This document shows, piece after piece, positions 5,211 through 15,502 of a stretch of DNA of 64,000 nt. The position numbers were made by a program, and so were the translations under genes. The notes beneath the pieces were generated by a model that was not told the DNA's origin, did not search any database, and saw only the letters and a program-made list of their open reading frames with translations. Position 1 is the stretch's first letter. Every line of letters begins with the position of its first letter. The stretch is from Candidatus Acidiferrales bacterium (lineage in GTDB: Bacteria > Acidobacteriota > Terriglobia > Acidiferrales > UBA7541). The stretch is from positions 1,229 through 65,228 of the forward strand of contig JBOGNK010000175.1 in the NCBI GenBank assembly GCA_050747085.1. Reading direction: 5' to 3'.

Positions 5211-7922
5211 ATGAGTATGCTGACGATGCTACTGGCGAAGGTGCGCGCCATGTTCGGGAAACGGCACGATGAGCGCGAGCTGGACGACGAACTGCGAGCG
5301 CACTTCGAGATGCTCGTCGAGCAGAACGTGCAGCGCGGGATGTCGTTTGATGACGCACGCCGGGGGGCGCGGCTGGAACTTGGCGGCGCGCCACAGATCA
5401 AGGAAGCCGTACACGATCAGCGTGGCGTTCCCTTTCTCGAATCGATCTTTGCTGATATTCGCTACGCGGGCCGTATGCTGCGCAGGTCGCCGGGATTCAC
5501 GACGGTCGCAGTCCTGACTCTTGCACTCGGTATAGGCGCAAATACTGCGATTTTCAGTCTGATCGATGCCGTGATGTTGCGCTACTTGCCTGTGCGACAG
5601 CCGGAGCAGCTCGTGCAGGTCGCCATGTTAACGCCGCGCTTCAGCAACGGTCACCGGACATCCTTTACAAATCCTCTGTGGGAGGCTCTGCGCAATAATC
5701 AGGACGTCTTCTCAGGCGTCTTCGCCTGGGGCGAGAGCCAATTCAACCTGGCACAAGGCGGTGTCGAGCAGGACGCGCGAGGGATTTTTGTCAGTGGCGA
5801 CTACTTCGGGACTCTAGGTGTCAGGCCTGCCGCCGGGCGCCTGTTAAGCGTGAATGACGACAAGCGCGGCTGTGCGGGAACCGCAGTCCTGAGCTACGGT
5901 TTCTGGCAAGCGCATTTCGGCGGGACACCGAAAGTCATTGGCAGCATGCTTCCAATCGCGGGACATCCGTTTCGGATTATCGGGGTATCGGATCCACGAT
6001 TCTTCGGCACGCAAGTTGGGAGCTCGTTCGACGTTGCTGTCCCGATCTGCTCGGAACTCATTCTCAGCGGAAAAGATTCGTCACTCGGTAACCGATCAAG
6101 CTGGTGGTTCCATGTAATCGGCCGGCCGAAGCCCGTTCTGACTACCGATCAAGTCTTGGCTCGTCTCTCGGTGCTTTCTCCGCGGATTTTTGCCGCAACG
6201 GTCCCCTCGAACTGGAATCCTGCGCAAAAAGCAAGCTACATGAATTGGAAATTCGTAACGGCCCCAGCGGCCACCGGCAATTCATCTGTGCGCTCCGGGT
6301 TTGACACGCCGCTCAAAATGCTGATGGCGATCGCGGGACTCGTACTTCTTATCGCGTGCGCGAACATTGCAAGCTTAATGCTGGCCCGGGCAGCTTCGCG
6401 CAGACGGGAAATCGCGGTTCGATTTGCGCTGGGAGCCTCTCGCGTAAGGATTGTTCGCCAACTGCTCACCGAATGCATCGTTTTATCAGTTACGGGCGCA
6501 GCTATCGGAATCATGGTTGCACATTGGAGCGGAGAACTGCTGGTTCGTTATATCTCCACCGAGCACACCAAGATCTATTTGGATCTCACACTGGACGGCC
6601 GCATTCTGGCGTTTACCGGCGCCGTCGCCATTGTCACAGGGCTGCTCTTCGGCGTCCTGCCGGCGCTGCGCTCGACACGACTGTCGTTGGCTGGATCAAT
6701 GAAGGGTGCAGCGATTGAAACGACGTCTAGAGATATGCGGTTTCATTCCGGGTATTGGACGGTGGCCGTTCAGGTCGCTTTGTCTCTCGTACTCGTCATC
6801 ACCGCGGCTCTCTTCATTCGTAGCTTCGCAAAACTGGCAACACTGGATGCCGGCTTCGACCACAACGACGTACTCGTCGCCAATGTTGACACTCATGACG
6901 CGAAATTGTCTCCGCAAGCGAGCGCTTCGTTTTCGGATCAGCTTCTTGTGAGGATTCGCGCTCTTCCCGAGGTGGTCAGCGCAAGCCGATCTGTCGTCAC
7001 GCCGATGAGCAATTCGCAGTGGGATGACTTCATTGTGGTTGAAGGTAAGAATACACCGACGGGCGACGATTCCGATGTCTACATGAACTACGTCACTCCA
7101 GGATACTTTCAAACACTGCGCACTCCACTACTCGAGGGGCGCGATTTCAACGAGCGCGATGCGGATAACACTTTTCGCGCGGTCATAATCAACCAGGCAC
7201 TCGCGCGCAGGTTCTTTCCGGGTGTGGATCCGATCGGCAAAACGATCCGGCGCTACGCCACGTCCACAACTCTTTCAGATCCGATCGAAGTTGTGGGAAT
7301 CGTCGGGAATTCGAAGTATGACTCTTTGCGCGAGGATTTTCCGCCGATTGCGTACTTTCCACTGGCCGAAGTTCCTTTTCCAGTTGAGCGATCAAGCGTA
7401 CTGATACGCACGGCGACGCGACCGTCGGTTCTTGCGAGTAGTGTGGCCCCGATCGTCGTCACTCTAAATCCATCGGTGACGGTCGAGTTCAACACACTTG
7501 CTCAACAGGTGAACGACTCGATCGTCCAGGAACGCCTGCTCGCGAGTCTTTCCGGCTTCTTCGGCGCCCTTGCGCTGCTGATCGCGATGATCGGTCTCTA
7601 CGGTGTTCTGGCATATCTCGTTCTCCAGCGCCAAAAGGAAATCGGCATTCGTATGGCGTTGGGGGCACAACGCACCTCTGTCGTCTGGCTCGTCCTGAGG
7701 GATGTCGCATTAATGCTGGCGATTGGAATTGTTGCAGGCGTTGGCATTGCGTGGGGAACCGGTCGAATTATTCAAGGCCTGCTTTTTGGTTTGGAAGCGC
7801 ACAGCATCGGAACGATTGCTGTCAGCATCGCTTTGCTGGCCGCCGTCGCGTTCTTAGCGAGCTACTTACCCGCGCGAAGAGCCACGCGCGTGGATCCGAT
7901 GACGGCATTGAGGTACGAGTAA
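5211..7922 (+). CDS. ADOP-family MacB-like permease, tandem paralog
   Basis: Same architecture as the upstream gene, ending VDPMTALRYE. Start moved from 5130 to ATG 5211, which lies after the upstream stop at 5193. Confidence 0.9.
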   Translation: MSMLTMLLAKVRAMFGKRHDERELDDELRAHFEMLVEQNVQRGMSFDDARRGARLELGGAPQIKEAVHDQRGVPFLESIFADIRYAGRMLRRSPGFTTVAVLTLALGIGANTAIFSLIDAVMLRYLPVRQPEQLVQVAMLTPRFSNGHRTSFTNPLWEALRNNQDVFSGVFAWGESQFNLAQGGVEQDARGIFVSGDYFGTLGVRPAAGRLLSVNDDKRGCAGTAVLSYGFWQAHFGGTPKVIGSMLPIAGHPFRIIGVSDPRFFGTQVGSSFDVAVPICSELILSGKDSSLGNRSSWWFHVIGRPKPVLTTDQVLARLSVLSPRIFAATVPSNWNPAQKASYMNWKFVTAPAATGNSSVRSGFDTPLKMLMAIAGLVLLIACANIASLMLARAASRRREIAVRFALGASRVRIVRQLLTECIVLSVTGAAIGIMVAHWSGELLVRYISTEHTKIYLDLTLDGRILAFTGAVAIVTGLLFGVLPALRSTRLSLAGSMKGAAIETTSRDMRFHSGYWTVAVQVALSLVLVITAALFIRSFAKLATLDAGFDHNDVLVANVDTHDAKLSPQASASFSDQLLVRIRALPEVVSASRSVVTPMSNSQWDDFIVVEGKNTPTGDDSDVYMNYVTPGYFQTLRTPLLEGRDFNERDADNTFRAVIINQALARRFFPGVDPIGKTIRRYATSTTLSDPIEVVGIVGNSKYDSLREDFPPIAYFPLAEVPFPVERSSVLIRTATRPSVLASSVAPIVVTLNPSVTVEFNTLAQQVNDSIVQERLLASLSGFFGALALLIAMIGLYGVLAYLVLQRQKEIGIRMALGAQRTSVVWLVLRDVALMLAIGIVAGVGIAWGTGRIIQGLLFGLEAHSIGTIAVSIALLAAVAFLASYLPARRATRVDPMTALRYE

Positions 7923-7949: not shown

Positions 7950-8945
7950 TCAGGACGACCAGCTCATTCCCCACGAATAGAAAGCGATCACTACAAGAAT
8001 GTCCAAAGGCAGCCCGAATATGATGTAGAGGACGGGCATGAATAGAATGGATTTTTGCAAAATCACGGCGTGCAGCAGCGCTTGCAGCGGAACGAACAGG
8101 CACAGGTGAATCATCGTCACAAACGTAAGGAGCACTTTGCGGAACAGGCCGAAGTCGAAGATGAAGTAGGTGAAGCCGAAGAGCGCCGGGATGAGCGAAA
8201 TCAGAACGATCCCGTAACCCACGAGACCCTCCAAATAGCCGCTGGACGTGTGTGGAAAAGCAGCGGGCGACCAAGCGAAGTACGCAAGAGCGGAGACCTG
8301 GACGCACAGCGCGGCGCGAATCAGATACGCAAAAGGAATCTTGTTGTTCTTCAGAAGAAAGCTCAATCCAAAGAGAAGCAAGACGGCAAGAGTGCTGGCC
8401 CACCAAAGTTCTGATGTAGGGGCAACGCTTTCCACGCGGGGGAAAGGAATGGAAAGATGGAAATACGCGGAGAAGCGGCGGTCCGTGATGCCGACAGCGG
8501 TGTTTAGCGCGAGTATTCGAGCGCCGCGCGTGAATACGATTCGCCAGAACCGGCAAACAAAAGGCAGCAGAAGCAGCCAGAGGACCGATAAGAAAGCGAC
8601 GAGTGCCGCAGAGATAAGGAGGTCAAATGGATTGAGCACAAATCTGGCGAGAGCTCGATGAGTGGCAATCAGCCCGCCGCGATGACCGCGAAAACGTCCG
8701 GGGTCGAGCCGTGGCTGCGGCTGGACCGAGACACGCGGCGCAGGCGGCTCAGAAGTCTTTGAAGAAACCAAGGCTTCCTCCGCCTCGGTGGTAATAGGGG
8801 CTGTGGTATATGTCAGCGATGAGGTTGAATCCCCAACTCCGCCCGACCCACTGCCGCCAAGTGAGGGTGGCGGTTTGACTTGGGAATCGCGTGAGGACTG
8901 ATGTGGCACCAACGACCTGATACGCCTCCTGTCCCGCTTCCGCAT
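7950..8945 (-). CDS. Polytopic inner-membrane protein of unknown function (last gene of the EPS operon); start uncertain
   Basis: About 7 hydrophobic segments from residue about 100 onward. The ATG at 8945 would overlap the upstream barrel gene by 197 nt. An in-frame GTG at 8639 sits just before the first TM. Confidence 0.5.
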   Translation of the reverse strand: MRKRDRRRIRSLVPHQSSRDSQVKPPPSLGGSGSGGVGDSTSSLTYTTAPITTEAEEALVSSKTSEPPAPRVSVQPQPRLDPGRFRGHRGGLIATHRALARFVLNPFDLLISAALVAFLSVLWLLLLPFVCRFWRIVFTRGARILALNTAVGITDRRFSAYFHLSIPFPRVESVAPTSELWWASTLAVLLLFGLSFLLKNNKIPFAYLIRAALCVQVSALAYFAWSPAAFPHTSSGYLEGLVGYGIVLISLIPALFGFTYFIFDFGLFRKVLLTFVTMIHLCLFVPLQALLHAVILQKSILFMPVLYIIFGLPLDILVVIAFYSWGMSWSS

Positions 8946-9630
8946 TCAGCGTTACGTAATACTTCTTGTCCGTTCCTCGCGTGACCGCGACGAACGCCGA
9001 AGGCGAAAAAACCGTGCCGGGATTGCTTACATTGAACCGGAACCCATCCTCCACAATCCACGGCGTATTGAAGTAATAGGTGGTGCCGACGAAATAGCTA
9101 TGGTCGCTGTGAACATCCTTCGCGTGATCGTATCCATAGCCGAAGGTGGTGATGAGCTGGCGGCGGCCGAGCCATTTGCGGTTCAGGAATGAATCCAAAC
9201 GCGAGCGGGGCCAGAAGACTCCTCCGACGCTCGACCCCATGGTGACGGACGCGTACCACGCGTCGCTGAAATTGAAAGTGTCGCCGGCATCGATGTATGT
9301 GCCGGCATCTCCAAATTCGTGCTGGCCATTCACTTCGGCGGTCAACGTGTTCTTGCCGGCTGAAAACACGGCGCGGAAGTACCCGCCGCTCCACCGGCCG
9401 TAATTGCTCGACAACTGCTCGTAGCTGCCTCCAACTTCGACGAAGTTGGTCAGCAGGCGAACCGGAGATTCGACCGATTCGTGCACCGCAGTCTCCCGGG
9501 ATGATGACGGCTGTGGATCGGCGGGAGCGGCGGCTTGTTGCGCGCTCAAGACTGGCGGTAACACGCAAGCCACAAAGAACAACCCAGCAAGCTTACTGTA
9601 ACGGCTGGCGGCGGGGCTCGCGGTTTTCAT
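8749..9630 (-). CDS. Outer-membrane beta-barrel protein (porin-like, YaiO-like), putative EPS export channel
   Basis: Start moved to ATG 9630, which forms an ATGA overlap with the upstream stop. Signal peptide KLAGLFFVACVLPPVLSAQQ, alternating aromatic/polar strands, C-terminal ...GFFKDF with a terminal Phe. Confidence 0.65.
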   Translation of the reverse strand: MKTASPAASRYSKLAGLFFVACVLPPVLSAQQAAAPADPQPSSSRETAVHESVESPVRLLTNFVEVGGSYEQLSSNYGRWSGGYFRAVFSAGKNTLTAEVNGQHEFGDAGTYIDAGDTFNFSDAWYASVTMGSSVGGVFWPRSRLDSFLNRKWLGRRQLITTFGYGYDHAKDVHSDHSYFVGTTYYFNTPWIVEDGFRFNVSNPGTVFSPSAFVAVTRGTDKKYYVTLNAEAGQEAYQVVGATSVLTRFPSQTATLTWRQWVGRSWGFNLIADIYHSPYYHRGGGSLGFFKDF

Positions 9631-11486
9631 TTCGCGACCAACCTCGACTCGAAGGTCAGTCGCCGTCCTTCTCCCGCGACGACAAACCAGGCGTTGCCGT
9701 CGGACGTGACGCGGGCGTCGCCCGAAACGATACGCGGTTCGGAGTACGAATTTTTCGGCAAGCACCACGTCGCATGGGCCAACGTGAGCGGGTCCGTTGC
9801 TTCAAAAATCGCTGAACCGCCGGTTTCGTGGACCGTCCACTTTATGGTCTTGCGAACATTGAGGAAGTCCGCGATCTGCGGCATCGTGTACCAGCGAAAT
9901 GTTCCAGCGGCTTTCAATTGCGCGGTTTTTTGCATCCACTGGTCGACGACCGCGTGGTAGCGCACGATTCCCGGCGGATGAAAATAGATGAGCCGCACTT
10001 CGCGGTGACTCGAGACGAAGTCGGTAGCATTGTCGAGCCATTGCTCAACGATGTCGTCCGTATAACCATACTTAGGCATCTCCTCGAATGTGGCGGCGCG
10101 ATCGAGGTGCAGGATCGGAAATGCCCAGATCGCCCTTCCAGCGCGTTTGCCGTGACGGTATCCGATCGTCGGTCCCATGCCTGTGTCGCCGGTGAAGTAG
10201 TAGGCAACGACGCCGTGCCGTGCGAGCCAATCGGTGACCCACTGCGGATGATTGCCCACAGGCGCCGAATACTCGCGCACGGGCTTGCCGGTGATTTTTT
10301 CGATGGCTTCCTTATTGAGTGCGAGATAACGCTGCATTTGAGCGGCATCCGTGTCATCAACGTGAGCAGCGAAGTAGTTGTGCAGCCAGCCGCCGTGACT
10401 CCCGATTTCGTACCGCAGTTGTTCGAAATGCCGAATCAGGTCCTGAACGGTTGCATTGTGAGGAACGTCAAGGCCTTGGGCGTCGCCGATTGAGTTGTCG
10501 TCGGGCCCAGCGGTGAAATCAACCGAGTAGGGCCCCTGCTGCACGATCGTCCAGGTGCTCATTTCCTGAAGCGGTTTGATAGCCCCTGCATAGTCCACAT
10601 GCCAATCGAGGACGATTCCGCCGATTCCACCGGGTACGGTCATCAGGTAAGGAAGCGAAAGAACCCTGGTGGCAAAGAACTTCAGAAACGAATGAAGAGG
10701 CAAGCCATCCGTGTAACTGGCCAAGAATCCGAGAGGCAGATTCACAAAAAGAACAGAACCCTTGCCGTATCGCCCGTATCCCGCGACGAGACCAGCGCGC
10801 GAATGCAGCAGGACGTGACCGGTGTAGTCCTTTGAGGTGGCAAAACTTGGATATTCCAAGTCACCGTATTCATAGCGGCGTAGTTCGGCAGTTTCTGTGT
10901 CGGCTGCGGTGGGGAGCCCTGGTGTTCCGAGAGGATAGTACTTACCGGGAGGTATTCCCAGTTCGTCGAGGGCGGCGATTGTTCCGCTCACAGGAGCCGA
11001 TTCGATCATGCGCGCGGCCAGCGACGAGTAAAGCGCGTAGTTAATTCCGGCAACGTCTGACAGCGGCGCCCGATCTTTCGCGTAGAATCCAGCCAGCGAT
11101 TCGGTAGCGGCATCATAGACGAGCATCAGTTTTCCGCCGCGCGTCACATAACTGCGAACGGCATTCGTGATCAGGTCGCCCGCGCGCGTATGAATCGTGT
11201 CGGGCAGAATCACGCCCGCGCATTGATGGCTGCCGGTCAAAGGATTTAGGGGATTCAAATAAGTGGAATCGTGCATGGGCACTATGTGAATGCCCTGTTC
11301 GTCGCCTGCATCCAGCCAAACGGTGACGCGCGCGTCGGAAAAGCTGGTGCCGTCGGGAACGAGGAGCAGCAGGCGGTCGGCACTGAAGGGTTGGGCGTTC
11401 CTCTTTCCGAGAACGAAAAATTCGGCGGAAAGCGCAGCCAGCACACAGAGTGCGACCGATGCGAAAATAGTTCGGCGCGCTTTCAT
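9627..11486 (-). CDS. Membrane-anchored putative polysaccharide deacetylase (CE4/PgaB-like C-terminal domain)
   Basis: N-terminal TM (IFASVALCVLAALSAEFFVL). FTAGPDD (Asp-Asp motif), GSHGGWLH (H-x4-H) and REYSAPVG are CE4-like motifs. ATGA overlap with the upstream gene. Confidence 0.6.
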   Translation of the reverse strand: MKARRTIFASVALCVLAALSAEFFVLGKRNAQPFSADRLLLLVPDGTSFSDARVTVWLDAGDEQGIHIVPMHDSTYLNPLNPLTGSHQCAGVILPDTIHTRAGDLITNAVRSYVTRGGKLMLVYDAATESLAGFYAKDRAPLSDVAGINYALYSSLAARMIESAPVSGTIAALDELGIPPGKYYPLGTPGLPTAADTETAELRRYEYGDLEYPSFATSKDYTGHVLLHSRAGLVAGYGRYGKGSVLFVNLPLGFLASYTDGLPLHSFLKFFATRVLSLPYLMTVPGGIGGIVLDWHVDYAGAIKPLQEMSTWTIVQQGPYSVDFTAGPDDNSIGDAQGLDVPHNATVQDLIRHFEQLRYEIGSHGGWLHNYFAAHVDDTDAAQMQRYLALNKEAIEKITGKPVREYSAPVGNHPQWVTDWLARHGVVAYYFTGDTGMGPTIGYRHGKRAGRAIWAFPILHLDRAATFEEMPKYGYTDDIVEQWLDNATDFVSSHREVRLIYFHPPGIVRYHAVVDQWMQKTAQLKAAGTFRWYTMPQIADFLNVRKTIKWTVHETGGSAIFEATDPLTLAHATWCLPKNSYSEPRIVSGDARVTSDGNAWFVVAGEGRRLTFESRLVAK

Positions 11487-12547
11487 AGGCGCGCGACAAC
11501 CCGGCCTGTTTCACGGGCCCAGAGCGTCCCATGAAACGAGCTGCCTTCCGTGGCATGTACGACCGGCGAACTCACCGTCGTCGGCGCTTCGGGCATCCCG
11601 CAAACAGTCCCTGAAGAGATCTCGATGCGGCGCTCGGCAAGAATGGGGCCGCCAATCCGGCAGTCGCGACTTATATACAGCTCGCCGGAGCTGATCAAAC
11701 TGCCACACACGACGGCCTTCTCCTCGAGTACGACCGATCTGTGACCTTTGGCGCTCCCCAGCATCCGCGCTCCGGCTCCAATGCGCAGCGTTCCGCGGGC
11801 GACGAGATTCTCGGGCATCACTTCACCAGGGCGAATCTCGAAATCACCGTCGATCAGCCGGCGCGCCAACGGGTGCGTCACGTTCGACGCGGGCTCGCGA
11901 TTTGCCGGGCGTTCATCTGGCGCAGACCCCAGAACAATGTGCGGAGCGTGCAGTCGCTGAAACGTGCAGCCTGAGGACAACAGGATTTCGCGGTCGGAGG
12001 AAACGCGACCGTACAACCCACATCCGCAGTCCGCTCGAAATCGGCCGACAGCATGGGCCCACCGCATTGTTTCGCTGCCCCGCCGCAGGTGAACGTCTTC
12101 GTCGCACAGGATCGCGCGAAAGGCATTTCGCTCTCCGCTGACGAGCGGTTTGGCAGAGTAGATTTCCTTCGCGAAAGTGAGGCCGTTTGGGAATGTCACG
12201 TTGGTTCCAGCGGCGACGAGCCATTCGCAGGTGGGTCCGTGAAGCCTGGCTGCCCTTATGAACGACTGCCGATCGTCTCCGAGCAGTAGATACTCCTCTC
12301 CATTCTTTAGACGCCCCCAGCCGTTGCTACGAGTTTCCGTGCACTGGCGCAGACGCTCCAACAATGGAGCGAGGTAACTCCGGAACCCGCGCGCGAAATA
12401 CGTAATGTCGCCCGCGTGTTTCTGAATTACTTCCAGCGGCTTTGCGTCGCGTTTGCGGAGCAGTTCATCAATCGCCGGCAGCAGAGGGATTGCCAGCAGC
12501 ACGCTTTCGGAAAGGACGAGAAGCGCGATTGCGGCCGGTGGTCTCAC
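11483..12547 (-). CDS. Membrane-anchored hypothetical protein with bactofilin-like beta-helical repeats
   Basis: N-terminal TM. The C-terminal half has repeating G-x-hydrophobic turns (RGTLRIGAGARMLGSAKGHRSVVLEEKAVVCGSLISSGELYISRDCRIGG). The GTG start forms a GTGA overlap with the GT2 stop. Confidence 0.4.
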   Translation of the reverse strand: MRPPAAIALLVLSESVLLAIPLLPAIDELLRKRDAKPLEVIQKHAGDITYFARGFRSYLAPLLERLRQCTETRSNGWGRLKNGEEYLLLGDDRQSFIRAARLHGPTCEWLVAAGTNVTFPNGLTFAKEIYSAKPLVSGERNAFRAILCDEDVHLRRGSETMRWAHAVGRFRADCGCGLYGRVSSDREILLSSGCTFQRLHAPHIVLGSAPDERPANREPASNVTHPLARRLIDGDFEIRPGEVMPENLVARGTLRIGAGARMLGSAKGHRSVVLEEKAVVCGSLISSGELYISRDCRIGGPILAERRIEISSGTVCGMPEAPTTVSSPVVHATEGSSFHGTLWARETGRVVARL

Positions 12548-13785
12548 GAGCTCACCCGGAAGCGCTCGGTTTTGTCCCAGTGAAATTTCGCGCCCGTAAG
12601 CGGAGCGAAAAGTTGCGACATGGCCGCGCGGGAAACAGCCACGATGCTGACGAGAAATCCGAGTACAAGGAGAGGAAGAATGCGAATGCGGATGGGAGTT
12701 GCATCGAGCCGAGCCGCGGCAGCAATTTCGAAAAATGCGGCGAAATTTCCGACAGCCGAATAGGCTGTCAAACAGAGAATCGCGAGGAGACCGTCAAAGA
12801 GACTTTGCCGCTCGTAGAATACCGCCAGCGCGAGGATCCAACCCAAAAGAGTTACAGGCGCCATTGCGTAGACGCCGAGCAGCAACGTCCCGTCGATCCG
12901 CTCTCGCCACACCGCCCGGTGGCGACCGAAAAACAGCCTCAGCGCGTACGTCACCATTGCCTGGTTGTGGCCCTTGGCCCAGCGCATGATCTGCCGGATG
13001 CGCACGGACCACGTTTCGGGAACTTCCTCATAGCACTCGGAGCGATTCTGATAAACGGTCTTCCATCCGGCGAGCAAAAGCCGGAAGGTAAGGTCAGTGT
13101 CTTCGGTAAGAGAGCTGTCGTTCCAGCCGCCGATTTCATGCAAGGCGGAGCGCCGCACACCGGCGACTGTCCCGCCGTGTTGCGGCACGAGGCGAAGATT
13201 CATTCGCGCTTGCTGGTCCACCTGATAGCCGCCGGCACGCTCCAGATCGAGCAGGCGGGTCAGCAGATTTCTCCCGACGTTGAGCGGCACAACGCGGCCC
13301 ATCACACCGCCGACCTCGGGATCAAAAAAAGGTGCAACCAGCTGCTTGATCAGTCCGGCGCCAGGGATATAGTCCGCGTCGAAAATCAGAATCACTTCGG
13401 TTTCGACGAGTTCCATTGCGTCGCGGAGCGCAGCAGCTTTGCCGCCTTTACCACCAGTGCGGTGGAAGGCCTGGATTCTTCCGGGATGCTCGGAAGCGAA
13501 TCGGTCGATGATTTGTTTGGTTCCGTCGGTCGATCGGTCGTTTACAGGCACGATCAGGAGCTTTTCAGGGGGATAGTTCACTTCGTTAAGCGCCGTCAAG
13601 ATATGGGTGATTACCTTTTCTTCGTTATGCGCGGCGACGAGCACGGTCACGTCGGGCCAGTTCGCGGTATCTATATCGACATACGGGTGGCGCTGAAATC
13701 CAAAAAGGCGATTCAGAGTGAAAAAGTAGTGCCGAACGGTGTAGATGCAAATGATCGCGACGATTAGAAATAGGCAATAGATCAT
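12544..13785 (-). CDS. Processive family-2 glycosyltransferase (PgaC/IcaA/NodC-like beta-glycan synthase)
   Basis: N-terminal TM, VTVLVAAHNEE, NDRSTDGT, IFDADY, TEDTDLT, QIMRWAKG (QxxRW processivity motif) and four C-terminal TM segments. Confidence 0.85.
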   Translation of the reverse strand: MIYCLFLIVAIICIYTVRHYFFTLNRLFGFQRHPYVDIDTANWPDVTVLVAAHNEEKVITHILTALNEVNYPPEKLLIVPVNDRSTDGTKQIIDRFASEHPGRIQAFHRTGGKGGKAAALRDAMELVETEVILIFDADYIPGAGLIKQLVAPFFDPEVGGVMGRVVPLNVGRNLLTRLLDLERAGGYQVDQQARMNLRLVPQHGGTVAGVRRSALHEIGGWNDSSLTEDTDLTFRLLLAGWKTVYQNRSECYEEVPETWSVRIRQIMRWAKGHNQAMVTYALRLFFGRHRAVWRERIDGTLLLGVYAMAPVTLLGWILALAVFYERQSLFDGLLAILCLTAYSAVGNFAAFFEIAAAARLDATPIRIRILPLLVLGFLVSIVAVSRAAMSQLFAPLTGAKFHWDKTERFRVSS

Positions 13786-13869
13786 TTCATTCGGCTACGC
13801 GCGAGAGCGGTTTACCGGCCGGACGCGCCAATGTCTGAATCGAATCTCCACGCGGCAATTCACTTTCGT

Positions 13870-15117
13870 TCAGCGCTTCGTAAGTTCCAATGCGCGTTCA
13901 GCATCCTGAATCGTGTCCGTCTTACGCCGGCGGGGACATGGCCGCGGAGGCAGCTTGAATTCCTTTTCGGGTTCGAGGAGAGGCGTGAGTCCTTGATACC
14001 AGCGCGCGACGGCCTCGACGATCCTCTCAGCGGCCTTGCCGTCGCCGTAGGGATTCTGACCCTCGGACATGTCCTGGTACGCCTTCGCATCGGTGAGCAG
14101 TTGCTCGGTTTCTCCCACGATGCGCTCACGCGACATGCCGATAATTTTCGACATTCCGAATTGCGACGCTTCCGGGCGTTCCGTGACTTTGCGCAAGACA
14201 AGAACGGGTTTCGCAAACGAAGGCGCCTCTTCCTGAACTCCGCCTGAGTCTGTGAGCACCAGAAAGCACTTGCGCAGCAAGCTCACAAATGTGACGTAGT
14301 CGAGGGGTTTCGTGAGATGAACGCGGCTGACGCCAGCGAGCAAACCGTTAACGGTTTCCTGCACGTTCGGATTCAAGTGCACGGGATAAATGACGCGGAT
14401 ATCCGAATGCCGTTCGGCCAGTTCTTTTATCGCGAGGCACATATTTTGCAGGTCGGGGCCGAAAGACTCTCGGCGGTGCGAGGTCACCAGGACGAGGCGG
14501 GAGCCGTCGTCCGGAATGCCCGCGAGTGGGGTGCCTTCCCAGGAATGCGGAAGATCCCTCAATTCACGCAAGGCGTCGACAACCGTATTGCCGGTGACGA
14601 CGATCTTCGCGGCGGGGATTCCTTCCGATAGCAGCGCATCGCGCGAAAGCGCCGTTGGAGCGAAGTGAATCTCAGTCAGAACGGACACGAGCCTTCGGTT
14701 CGCTTCTTCGGGAAACGGATTGTAGAGATCGTGACTGCGAAGGCCCGCCTCGATGTGTGCTACGGGAATCCGGCAATAGTAAGACGCGAGGGCTGATGCG
14801 AATGCGGTTGTCGTGTCGCCCTGAACGATCACGATGTTCGGCTCAAATCGATGACATGCGTTCTCGACCGTGTCGATCACACGCCCAGTCAAAGAGCTGA
14901 GCGTCTGATTCGGCCGCATCACGTCCAAGTCGAAATCCGGTTTGATCTTGAACAGTTGAAGAGCGTGATCAAGCATCGTCCGGTGCTGGCCCGTGTGCAC
15001 CACAGCCGTCTCGAAATCGTTCGAGTGGCGCCGAAGCTCATGAATCACCAGCGCGAGTTTGATGGCCTCGGGCCGCGTGCCCAGGACAGCTATGACTCGG
15101 CACTTCCGTGTTTGCAT
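13870..15117 (-). CDS. wecB: UDP-N-acetylglucosamine 2-epimerase (non-hydrolysing)
   Basis: RVIAVLGTRPEAIKLA... and DSGGVQEEAPSFAKPVLVLR signatures. Start moved to ATG 15117 (MQTRKCRVIAV). Confidence 0.9.
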   Translation of the reverse strand: MQTRKCRVIAVLGTRPEAIKLALVIHELRRHSNDFETAVVHTGQHRTMLDHALQLFKIKPDFDLDVMRPNQTLSSLTGRVIDTVENACHRFEPNIVIVQGDTTTAFASALASYYCRIPVAHIEAGLRSHDLYNPFPEEANRRLVSVLTEIHFAPTALSRDALLSEGIPAAKIVVTGNTVVDALRELRDLPHSWEGTPLAGIPDDGSRLVLVTSHRRESFGPDLQNMCLAIKELAERHSDIRVIYPVHLNPNVQETVNGLLAGVSRVHLTKPLDYVTFVSLLRKCFLVLTDSGGVQEEAPSFAKPVLVLRKVTERPEASQFGMSKIIGMSRERIVGETEQLLTDAKAYQDMSEGQNPYGDGKAAERIVEAVARWYQGLTPLLEPEKEFKLPPRPCPRRRKTDTIQDAERALELTKR

Positions 15118-15429
15118 GAATCGCCTCCCCAAGCGGGATGGATCGCGAGCGCGTTGCGCGACAGAGTGCTCGACAATGCCCACGGGCACCGGCAGGCAGA
15201 CCAGCGCGCGGCCAGGACCATGAAGCGGAAAGCACGAGCGAAACCAAATCGAAAGTCGTGTATGGCGTGTTCCCTTAAGGAATTGAAGGGTTTGTGGTTC
15301 GTTGCGTTCGCGATCAGCTTAGGGGCGGCGTTCCATTTCGGTTTCGTGCTCCGAAATGAAATACGCTGAGGGTATTCGTCTGAAGTAGGGGTCGAGTAGC
15401 GAGGCGTCTAAAACGCCGCGAACCGCGTG

Positions 15430-15457
15430 CACTCGAGCCGTCTGGTGTGCTCGAGTG
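15430..15457 (-). terminator. Candidate transcription terminator hairpin downstream of the pilX-like gene (no U-tract)
   Basis: Perfect 9-bp stem CACTCGAGC/GCTCGAGTG with a 10-nt loop, 46 nt past the stop at 15503. A second small hairpin, GGCGT-N5-ACGCC, lies at 15404-15418. Confidence 0.35.
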
Positions 15458-15502
15458 ACGCGGCTGCGGCCATTTCATTTTCTAAGACGGGAGGCGCTTT
15501 TA

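Follow-up and report, generated by a model that had tools for sequence, protein, structure and literature searches.

A conserved six-gene operon of an Acidobacteriota genome that probably encodes an uncharacterised synthase-dependent exopolysaccharide secretion system

A stretch of 64,000 nucleotides (nt) from a Candidatus Acidiferrales bacterium (Acidobacteriota; GenBank assembly GCA_050747085.1, contig JBOGNK010000175.1, positions 1,229 to 65,228; hereafter the window) carries a minus-strand operon of six genes. They encode a WecB epimerase, a family 2 glycosyltransferase (GT2), a beta-helix protein, a predicted deacetylase, an outer-membrane barrel and a polytopic membrane protein. We were interested in what polymer such an operon might make and how it might be exported. 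A preliminary description of the DNA had proposed a pathway resembling that of poly-beta-1,6-N-acetylglucosamine (PNAG). The gene content, the family and fold assignments, the conservation and the linkage of the genes support that proposal only in part. As judged from the sequences and structure models, the operon probably encodes an uncharacterised synthase-dependent exopolysaccharide secretion system, whose product would be a partly de-N-acetylated N-acetylhexosamine (HexNAc) polymer.

Conservation and linkage of the six genes

Six open reading frames of one direction, partly overlapping, fill the minus strand at 7950-15117 (Table 1). Start/stop overlaps of 4 nt were found at three junctions (GTGA at 12547/12544, ATGA at 11486/11483 and ATGA at 9630/9627), exactly as the preliminary description had reported for this co-directional operon. 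The six genes are translationally coupled.

One genome per prokaryotic species was scanned with the deacetylase, yielding 78 loci in which the six proteins were placed by tblastn. Conservation of the operon, suggested earlier as a check, was borne out by the full six-gene set in 60 of the 78 loci, and many of the incomplete loci were short or ended within the module. Such co-occurrence across two phyla is far beyond chance. The gene order of the window was kept in Terriglobia (45 loci). Four complete gene orders were found in Betaproteobacteria and Gammaproteobacteria, three of them rearranged and one identical to that of Terriglobia (two loci); the carriers there were Cupriavidus necator, Ralstonia pickettii, Sphaerotilus natans, Xenophilus, Sulfuricaulis and metagenome-assembled genomes. 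The beta-helix gene directly followed the GT2 gene in 66 of 68 loci, the membrane-protein gene directly followed the barrel gene in 65 of 65, and wecB stayed in the module through all gene orders in both phyla. No further carrier was detected in a phylum-wide sample of 300 genomes, and the module was present in 9 of 400 genomes of a class sample, including 6 of 19 from the same genus, indicating a patchy distribution. Homologues of the deacetylase fell into more than 1100 clusters, mostly from soil and peat metagenomes.

One variant locus (L142:5508-12299) contained a GT2 with 48% identity to that of the window, a homologue of the beta-helix protein (hhalign probability 99.7%) and a barrel of the same YaiO family, together with a stand-alone GH42M-like (Rossmann-like) protein and further proteins of 250 and 564 amino acids (aa). 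Because these three components occur there without wecB and without the deacetylase, the conserved core, as read from these sequences, is GT2, beta-helix protein and YaiO, of which the window system appears to be one elaboration. A seventh gene was observed after the beta-helix gene in Angelobacter, Cupriavidus and Ralstonia loci (L045:6880-7902; L051:12566-13579). It encodes a protein of about 340 aa that is secreted and weakly matches (alpha/alpha)6 glycoside hydrolases (MGH1-like, trehalase); between the phyla, its copies are 43% identical. Dedicated hydrolases are typical of such systems, as in BcsZ, PssZ and the hydrolase domains of PelA and PgaB (PMC6307706). This hydrolase-like gene goes beyond the preliminary description, as do the YaiO family membership of the barrel and the putative bactofilin-type domain of the beta-helix protein.

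The epimerase, the synthase and its beta-helix partner

The first gene product matched TIGR00236 with 456 bits (equivalog cut-off 210) and Epimerase_2 at an E value of 8e-114, and its assignment by sequence as a non-hydrolysing UDP-GlcNAc 2-epimerase is unambiguous. The epimerase had been taken earlier as a hint of N-acetylmannosamine (ManNAc) incorporation. The suggestion gains strength from the retention of wecB in the module across at least five gene orders in two phyla, and a ManNAc-containing polymer is proposed from this linkage by analogy with Nfr and Listeria Pss. The same linkage argument was made for the ManNAc substrate of the Nfr system, there with genetic support (PMC8669469).

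The GT2 matched Glyco_tranf_2_3 (E 4e-33). The D, D, D, QxxRW motif set and flanking transmembrane helices noted earlier were recovered as DAD136, TED227 and QIMRW265, with hydrophobic segments at residues 1-19 (N-terminal), 305-351 and 367-385. These are motifs of the cellulose-synthase/PgaC type, in agreement with the proposed synthase-dependent nature of the operon; DxD, TED and QxxRW with hydrophobic segments after the glycosyltransferase domain mark a cellulose-synthase-like enzyme, a sign of processivity at the level of sequence only. PgaC_IcaA (TIGR03937) was the top family (E 1e-38), yet the score of 133.4 bits lay well below the equivalog cut-off of 422; CelA, NodC and BcsA came next. 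When compared with E. coli proteins, the GT2 was 29% identical to PgaC (E 4e-30) and 23% to YaiP, and reached NfrB only at E 0.014. BcsA chains were among the best matches to sequences of the Protein Data Bank (PDB; E 2e-12). Elsewhere in the genome of the window (L079 contig 7, 5687-9736), a stronger PgaC-like match of 203 bits was seen in a 1158-aa open frame, a large fused synthase.

Could the operon then be an ordinary PNAG system, that is, a diverged pgaABCD with wecB as a passenger? The best family of the synthase and its identity to PgaC would fit, and so would the presence of a deacetylase and an outer-membrane barrel. However, the score of the synthase falls far short of the PgaC_IcaA cut-off, no relation to PgaA, PgaB or PgaD was revealed by BLAST or profile comparison, and the barrel lacks tetratricopeptide repeats (TPR). 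In addition, wecB remains in the module in every gene order in two phyla, and two extra conserved subunits are not known from pga systems. The PNAG-like pathway of the preliminary description was thus not upheld, and we consider an ordinary PNAG system distinctly unlikely.

The wecB linkage is also the reported hallmark of nfr loci, and the C-terminus of the GT2 weakly matched the NfrB model NF011305 (32 bits), so membership in the Nfr (NfrB/NfrA/YbcH) ManNAc-polymer system of Proteobacteria was considered. The GT2 has no MshEN domain, which NfrB has, and its match to NfrB itself is the marginal one given above. Neither an NfrA_C barrel nor TPR nor DUF4434 (YbcH) was found among the six proteins, whereas the E. 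coli proteins match these Pfam families. With all three defining domains lacking, Nfr membership is largely refuted, and we rate it as highly improbable.

The partner encoded directly after the synthase was modelled with a mean predicted local distance difference test (pLDDT) score of 88 as a transmembrane helix (3-30), a second helix (48-72) and a beta-helix (110-351). A fold search against the PDB gave nothing significant; the best matches were left-handed beta-helix acyltransferases and autotransporters, all at E>0.1, and an acyltransferase identity is therefore not supported. A profile search of 1.84 billion cluster representatives returned 893 relatives at E<=1e-30, a number that rises to 2944 at E<=0.001, and nearly all of the 150 best matches were 340-390 aa long. 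The window protein scored 13.6 bits against Pfam Bactofilin (PF04519, cut-off 27.9 bits), whereas members of the family reach 30-48 bits and four of the longer members scanned exceed the cut-off. The only fused domains found in longer members were bactofilin repeats or a transposase fragment. Conserved residues include E28, D34 and L38 just past the helix, as well as R162-W163-x-H165, and in most homologues a Lys/Arg cluster lies after, not before, the N-terminal helix. The protein could be a PgaD-like activator, a regulator or gate, or a filament scaffold. Next to arrays of cellulose synthase, cytoskeletal structures shaped like belts have been described that recall bactofilins, with no gene assigned (PMC8892547), which makes the scaffold idea worth testing.

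The deacetylase, the YaiO barrel and the terminal membrane protein

The 619-aa protein matched Polysacc_deac_1 weakly (25.5 bits, cut-off 23.1), over residues 348-426 only. A model built from 26 homologues (mean pLDDT 88.7) consisted of an N-terminal helix followed by a Rossmann-like domain (38-280), a (beta/alpha)7 barrel (290-545) and a C-terminal beta-sandwich (549-616). The top Foldseek match of the whole model was human NDST1 (E 2.5e-9, 606 columns), and the N-terminal domain resembled non-catalytic domains of family 42 glycoside hydrolases (GH42). The deacetylases HP0310, ArnD and the mycobacterial MSMEG enzyme (3qbu, 8t0j, 3rxz) matched the barrel domain with target-normalised TM-scores of 0.58-0.63. 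By fold, the model confirms a barrel of the carbohydrate esterase family 4 (CE4) type (NodB fold), the lack of which had been named earlier as a refutation. The label "PgaB-like", on the other hand, did not hold: no BLAST match to PgaB was found, profile comparison gave 1.5% probability, and the domain layout differs.

H296, D329, H364, H369 and H503 are invariant in the 26 homologues, D298 is nearly so, and the HGGWLH motif that contains H364 and H369 is invariant as well. The H-x4-H motif described previously is thus genuine, but the accompanying Asp-Asp (329-330) is no conserved pair, only D329 being invariant. D298, in H296-V-D298 at the end of the first barrel strand, is the second candidate metal-binding Asp. 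The conserved set fits a metal-dependent NodB-type site, with the metal-binding Asp residues as candidates only. A weak local profile alignment placed HGGWxH on the His pair of ArnD. A profile of the 26 homologues found no PDB sequence at E<=1, although the set searched presumably includes Agd3 (6NWZ) and NDST1; homology to family CE18 (Agd3-like) was thus not detected. The short basic flank of the N-terminal helix suggests a periplasmic body. Annotations in cultured Cupriavidus call the barrel "YaiO family" and the deacetylase hypothetical, "membrane protein" or "NodB homology domain".

NDST1 is itself an Agd3/CE18 homologue (PMC10864358), and Agd3 comprises three domains, namely CBM87, CE18 and a C-terminus rich in beta-structure (PMC7229062). 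The window protein shares with both the layout of a Rossmann-like or carbohydrate-binding-module (CBM) N-terminal domain and a (beta/alpha)7 deacetylase barrel, here predicted to be metal-dependent, and with Agd3 also the beta-rich C-terminus (PMC7229062, PMC10864358). It differs in the spacing of the His pair, which is i+5 (HGGWxH) here and i+4 in NDST1 (H389/H393), and in that no Asp immediately precedes the candidate metal-binding Asp. Its genetic partners are different, too: Agd3 is accompanied by a Pel/galactosaminogalactan (GAG)-type glycosyltransferase of the cytoplasm and a membrane protein with multiple spans, the window protein by a GT2 synthase.

The barrel matched TIGR04390 with 152.9 bits (cut-off 32) over model positions 2-230 of 230, and Pfam YaiO (PF19413) with 88.5 bits (cut-off 23.9), where E. 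coli YaiO reaches 92.7. The signal peptide, the terminal Phe and the absence of TPR agree with what had been described; no TPR match was found in the 293-aa protein with Pfam or NCBIfam. By analogy, the YaiO barrel is presumed to be the export pore. YaiO-domain proteins were found in 35 of 301 sampled Acidobacteriota genomes, and for 13 of 20 YaiO loci sampled from different genera, a PgaC-like GT2 was located at a distance of up to about 3 kb (in locus L141, of about 8 kb). At the one locus inspected for this feature (L129), N-terminal TPR repeats and the barrel form one fused TPR-YaiO protein of 407 aa, and many other YaiO matches fall in open frames of about 420-440 aa, with room for such an extension. 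TPR plus barrel is the layout of PgaA, BcsC, PelB and NfrA. TPR-fused YaiO proteins beside PgaC-like synthases therefore support a role in export. The papers listed among those that mention YaiO deal almost entirely with detection and typing of E. coli, and no polysaccharide-export function was found in them.

In addition to TPR-YaiO, locus L129 (6011-13002) has genes for a PgaC-like GT2, a HEAT-repeat protein and a sulfatase/phosphoethanolamine-transferase-like membrane protein of 829 aa. It has the look of a further uncharacterised synthase-dependent system, and YaiO may be found more commonly in a setting of this type in Acidobacteriota.

The terminal membrane protein has several hydrophobic segments and conserved motifs that include FPH, YYIFDF and YSWGMSW. 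It has no match in Pfam or NCBIfam, and all 308 homologues detected are named hypothetical. No curated family names this protein or the beta-helix protein.

Several observations weigh against an exopolysaccharide system. The product of WecB could serve another pathway. Lipid glycosyltransferases that transfer one sugar only also carry the D, D, D, QxxRW motif set, and among the weaker matches of the GT2 are Glyco_transf_21, HpnI and HpnB. The residue before D298 is Val or Ile and never Asp, the usual catalytic base, so the deacetylase activity and its mechanism are putative. The barrel domain has only about 230 aa and comes without TPR. The bulk of the beta-helix protein is probably cytoplasmic, because Lys and Arg lie after its helix (positive-inside rule), a placement by charge counts only. 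The seventh, hydrolase-like gene was not found anywhere in the genome of the window, which is 94% complete.

Part of this evidence would suit an envelope glycolipid pathway, in which the GT2 adds a single HexNAc to a lipid (diacylglycerol, hopanoid or polyprenyl phosphate), deacetylation proceeds as by ArnD, and the membrane protein and barrel move or anchor the amino-glycolipid. This alternative stands because QxxRW GT2s include single-transfer lipid enzymes and the deacetylase barrel resembles ArnD, both by fold and in the weak alignment of the His pair. MftF is a further weaker match of the GT2, and its best PDB sequence match is 6yv7, labelled family 2 glycosyltransferase, which we take to be a minimal non-processive archaeal mannosyltransferase. 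However, the PgaC_IcaA alignment covers the N-terminal helix, the glycosyltransferase domain and the first C-terminal helices. The body of the deacetylase is predicted to be periplasmic, with the polymer-enzyme architecture of Agd3/NDST1 and a CBM-like N-terminal domain (PMC7229062). Many loci have the secreted glycoside-hydrolase-like seventh gene, and YaiO is elsewhere fused to TPR, like polysaccharide porins. We regard a glycolipid pathway as unlikely, and exopolysaccharide secretion as the probable function.

Operon borders, proposed pathway and known systems

A convergent plus-strand gene ending at 7922 borders the operon downstream. On the other side, a very stable hairpin directly after a 677-aa PilX-like gene probably serves the minor-pilin operon as its intrinsic terminator, and it marks the 5′ boundary of the exopolysaccharide operon. 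No Rfam family, riboswitch or other RNA, matched the 385-nt leader (15118-15502), and scans of the leader for consensus promoters and terminators gave nothing informative. The six reading frames listed in the preliminary description are real, while two gene starts were moved. The most likely start of wecB is ATG 15117, downstream of GGGGAGG, rather than GTG 15189. For the last gene it is most likely TTG 8771, preceded by GGAGGAA; the product then has 273 aa, and the gene overlaps the barrel gene by 23 nt. The gene caller picks this start, and an HRALAxF motif sits upstream of GTG 8639. Homologues of the last gene have a conserved MHRALAxF start, and the window still encodes the motif there.

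Table 1. Features of the operon and its upstream border, with positions in the window
Feature	Position	Strand	Basis
wecB, non-hydrolysing UDP-GlcNAc 2-epimerase, 415 aa	13870..15117	-	TIGR00236, Epimerase_2
Membrane-embedded GT2 synthase, PgaC-like, 413 aa	12544..13785	-	Glyco_tranf_2_3, motifs
Membrane-anchored beta-helix (putative bactofilin-type) protein, 354 aa	11483..12547	-	Predicted structure, synteny with GT2
Predicted three-domain polysaccharide de-N-acetylase (periplasmic, N-terminally anchored), 619 aa	9627..11486	-	Predicted fold, invariant His/Asp
YaiO-family outer-membrane beta-barrel without TPR, 293 aa	8749..9630	-	TIGR04390, Pfam YaiO
Polytopic inner-membrane protein, 273 aa (TTG 8771) or 229 aa (GTG 8639)	7950..8771	-	Hydrophobic segments
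Terminator-like hairpin of upstream pilin operon	15405..15495	-	-46.1 kcal/mol, z-score -5.7 vs shuffles, then UUUU

The products can be arranged in a pathway. WecB would convert UDP-GlcNAc to UDP-ManNAc, and the PgaC-like GT2 would polymerise a HexNAc chain, probably ManNAc-containing and beta-linked, and thread it through the inner membrane. The synthase would work with an obligate single-pass partner, whose probably cytoplasmic beta-helix may act as activator, gate or scaffold. In the periplasm, the membrane-tethered Agd3/NDST1-like enzyme would strip some of the N-acetyl groups, giving a cationic polymer, which the TPR-less YaiO barrel would take across the outer membrane. The polytopic inner-membrane protein encoded beside YaiO would have an accessory role. 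The sugar, the processivity of the synthase, the topology, export through YaiO and the protein contacts in this scheme are what we infer from the locus.

A bolder reading can be advanced only tentatively, and we lean against it at present. The core of GT2, bactofilin-domain subunit and YaiO would form an unrecognised secretion class, in which a polymer-forming bactofilin-type protein serves as an integral cytoplasmic subunit of the synthase, organising or gating it. YaiO proteins, including that of the E. coli yaiO-X-P-S cluster, would be the outer-membrane pores of this class, and the product here would be a partly de-N-acetylated ManNAc polymer. If this holds, a cytoskeletal fold would be tied to polysaccharide secretion by a link that is genetically encoded.

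As predicted for the window system, the PNAG systems pgaABCD and icaADBC of E. coli and staphylococci couple a membrane GT2 to a small membrane protein that it requires, remove part of the N-acetyl groups of a HexNAc polymer in the periplasm and have an outer-membrane barrel, and PgaC is the nearest characterised relative of the GT2. In contrast to these systems, the partner here is a 354-aa protein with a putative bactofilin-type domain instead of PgaD, and the deacetylase is unrelated in sequence and domain layout to PgaB (CE4 plus GH153). The YaiO-type barrel without TPR, the dedicated wecB and the extra polytopic protein are further differences. Like the window system as proposed here, Nfr (NfrB-NfrA-YbcH with WecB/NfrC) is synthase-dependent and tied to a UDP-GlcNAc 2-epimerase, with an inferred ManNAc-based polymer and export through an outer-membrane barrel (PMC8669469, PMC8669472). 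The MshEN cyclic di-GMP (c-di-GMP) domain, the NfrA_C/TPR porin and DUF4434 are lacking here, while Nfr has neither a deacetylase nor a bactofilin-domain subunit.

The Pss system of Listeria (pssA-E, pssZ) also resembles the window system, with a GT2 synthase, a beta-1,4-ManNAc backbone, the deacetylase PssB, which is needed for cell association, and a dedicated hydrolase (PMC13492145, PMC6307706). It is Gram-positive and has no outer-membrane part, and the likeness is drawn from its published description. According to Koseoglu et al. in 2015, Listeria Pss reportedly has a BcsB-like PssD and the c-di-GMP receptor PssE. The cryptic yaiO-yaiX-yaiP-yaiS cluster of E. coli K-12 (L089:4070-8617) combines a YaiO barrel, a membrane GT2 (YaiP), a beta-helix protein (YaiX, annotated as a putative acyltransferase and a pseudogene in K-12) and a deacetylase (YaiS). 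Clear homology is limited to the barrel, YaiP being the distant relative of the GT2 noted above and YaiS a small PIG-L enzyme; the cluster may represent a system of this broad class that has decayed. Xanthomonas xagABCD is a possible relative. The module was not described in the literature found on synthase-dependent systems of Acidobacteria, on bactofilins with exopolysaccharides or on ManNAc with a deacetylase, and its combination of parts is not seen together in any studied secretion system.

Synthase-dependent exopolysaccharide systems shape biofilms, soil aggregation and phage susceptibility, and those understood are few: cellulose, alginate, PNAG, Pel, Nfr and Pss. The module would add to them an obligate beta-helix (bactofilin-type) synthase partner, an Agd3/NDST1-like deacetylase in a Gram-negative GT2 system and a conserved membrane protein. 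For the YaiO barrels, a family in which the founding member from E. coli has no known role, it also suggests a function. The module is commonly met in metagenomes of Acidobacteria from peat and soil, and the predictions are directly testable because it also occurs in the cultured and tractable Cupriavidus necator N-1, Ralstonia pickettii and Sphaerotilus natans.

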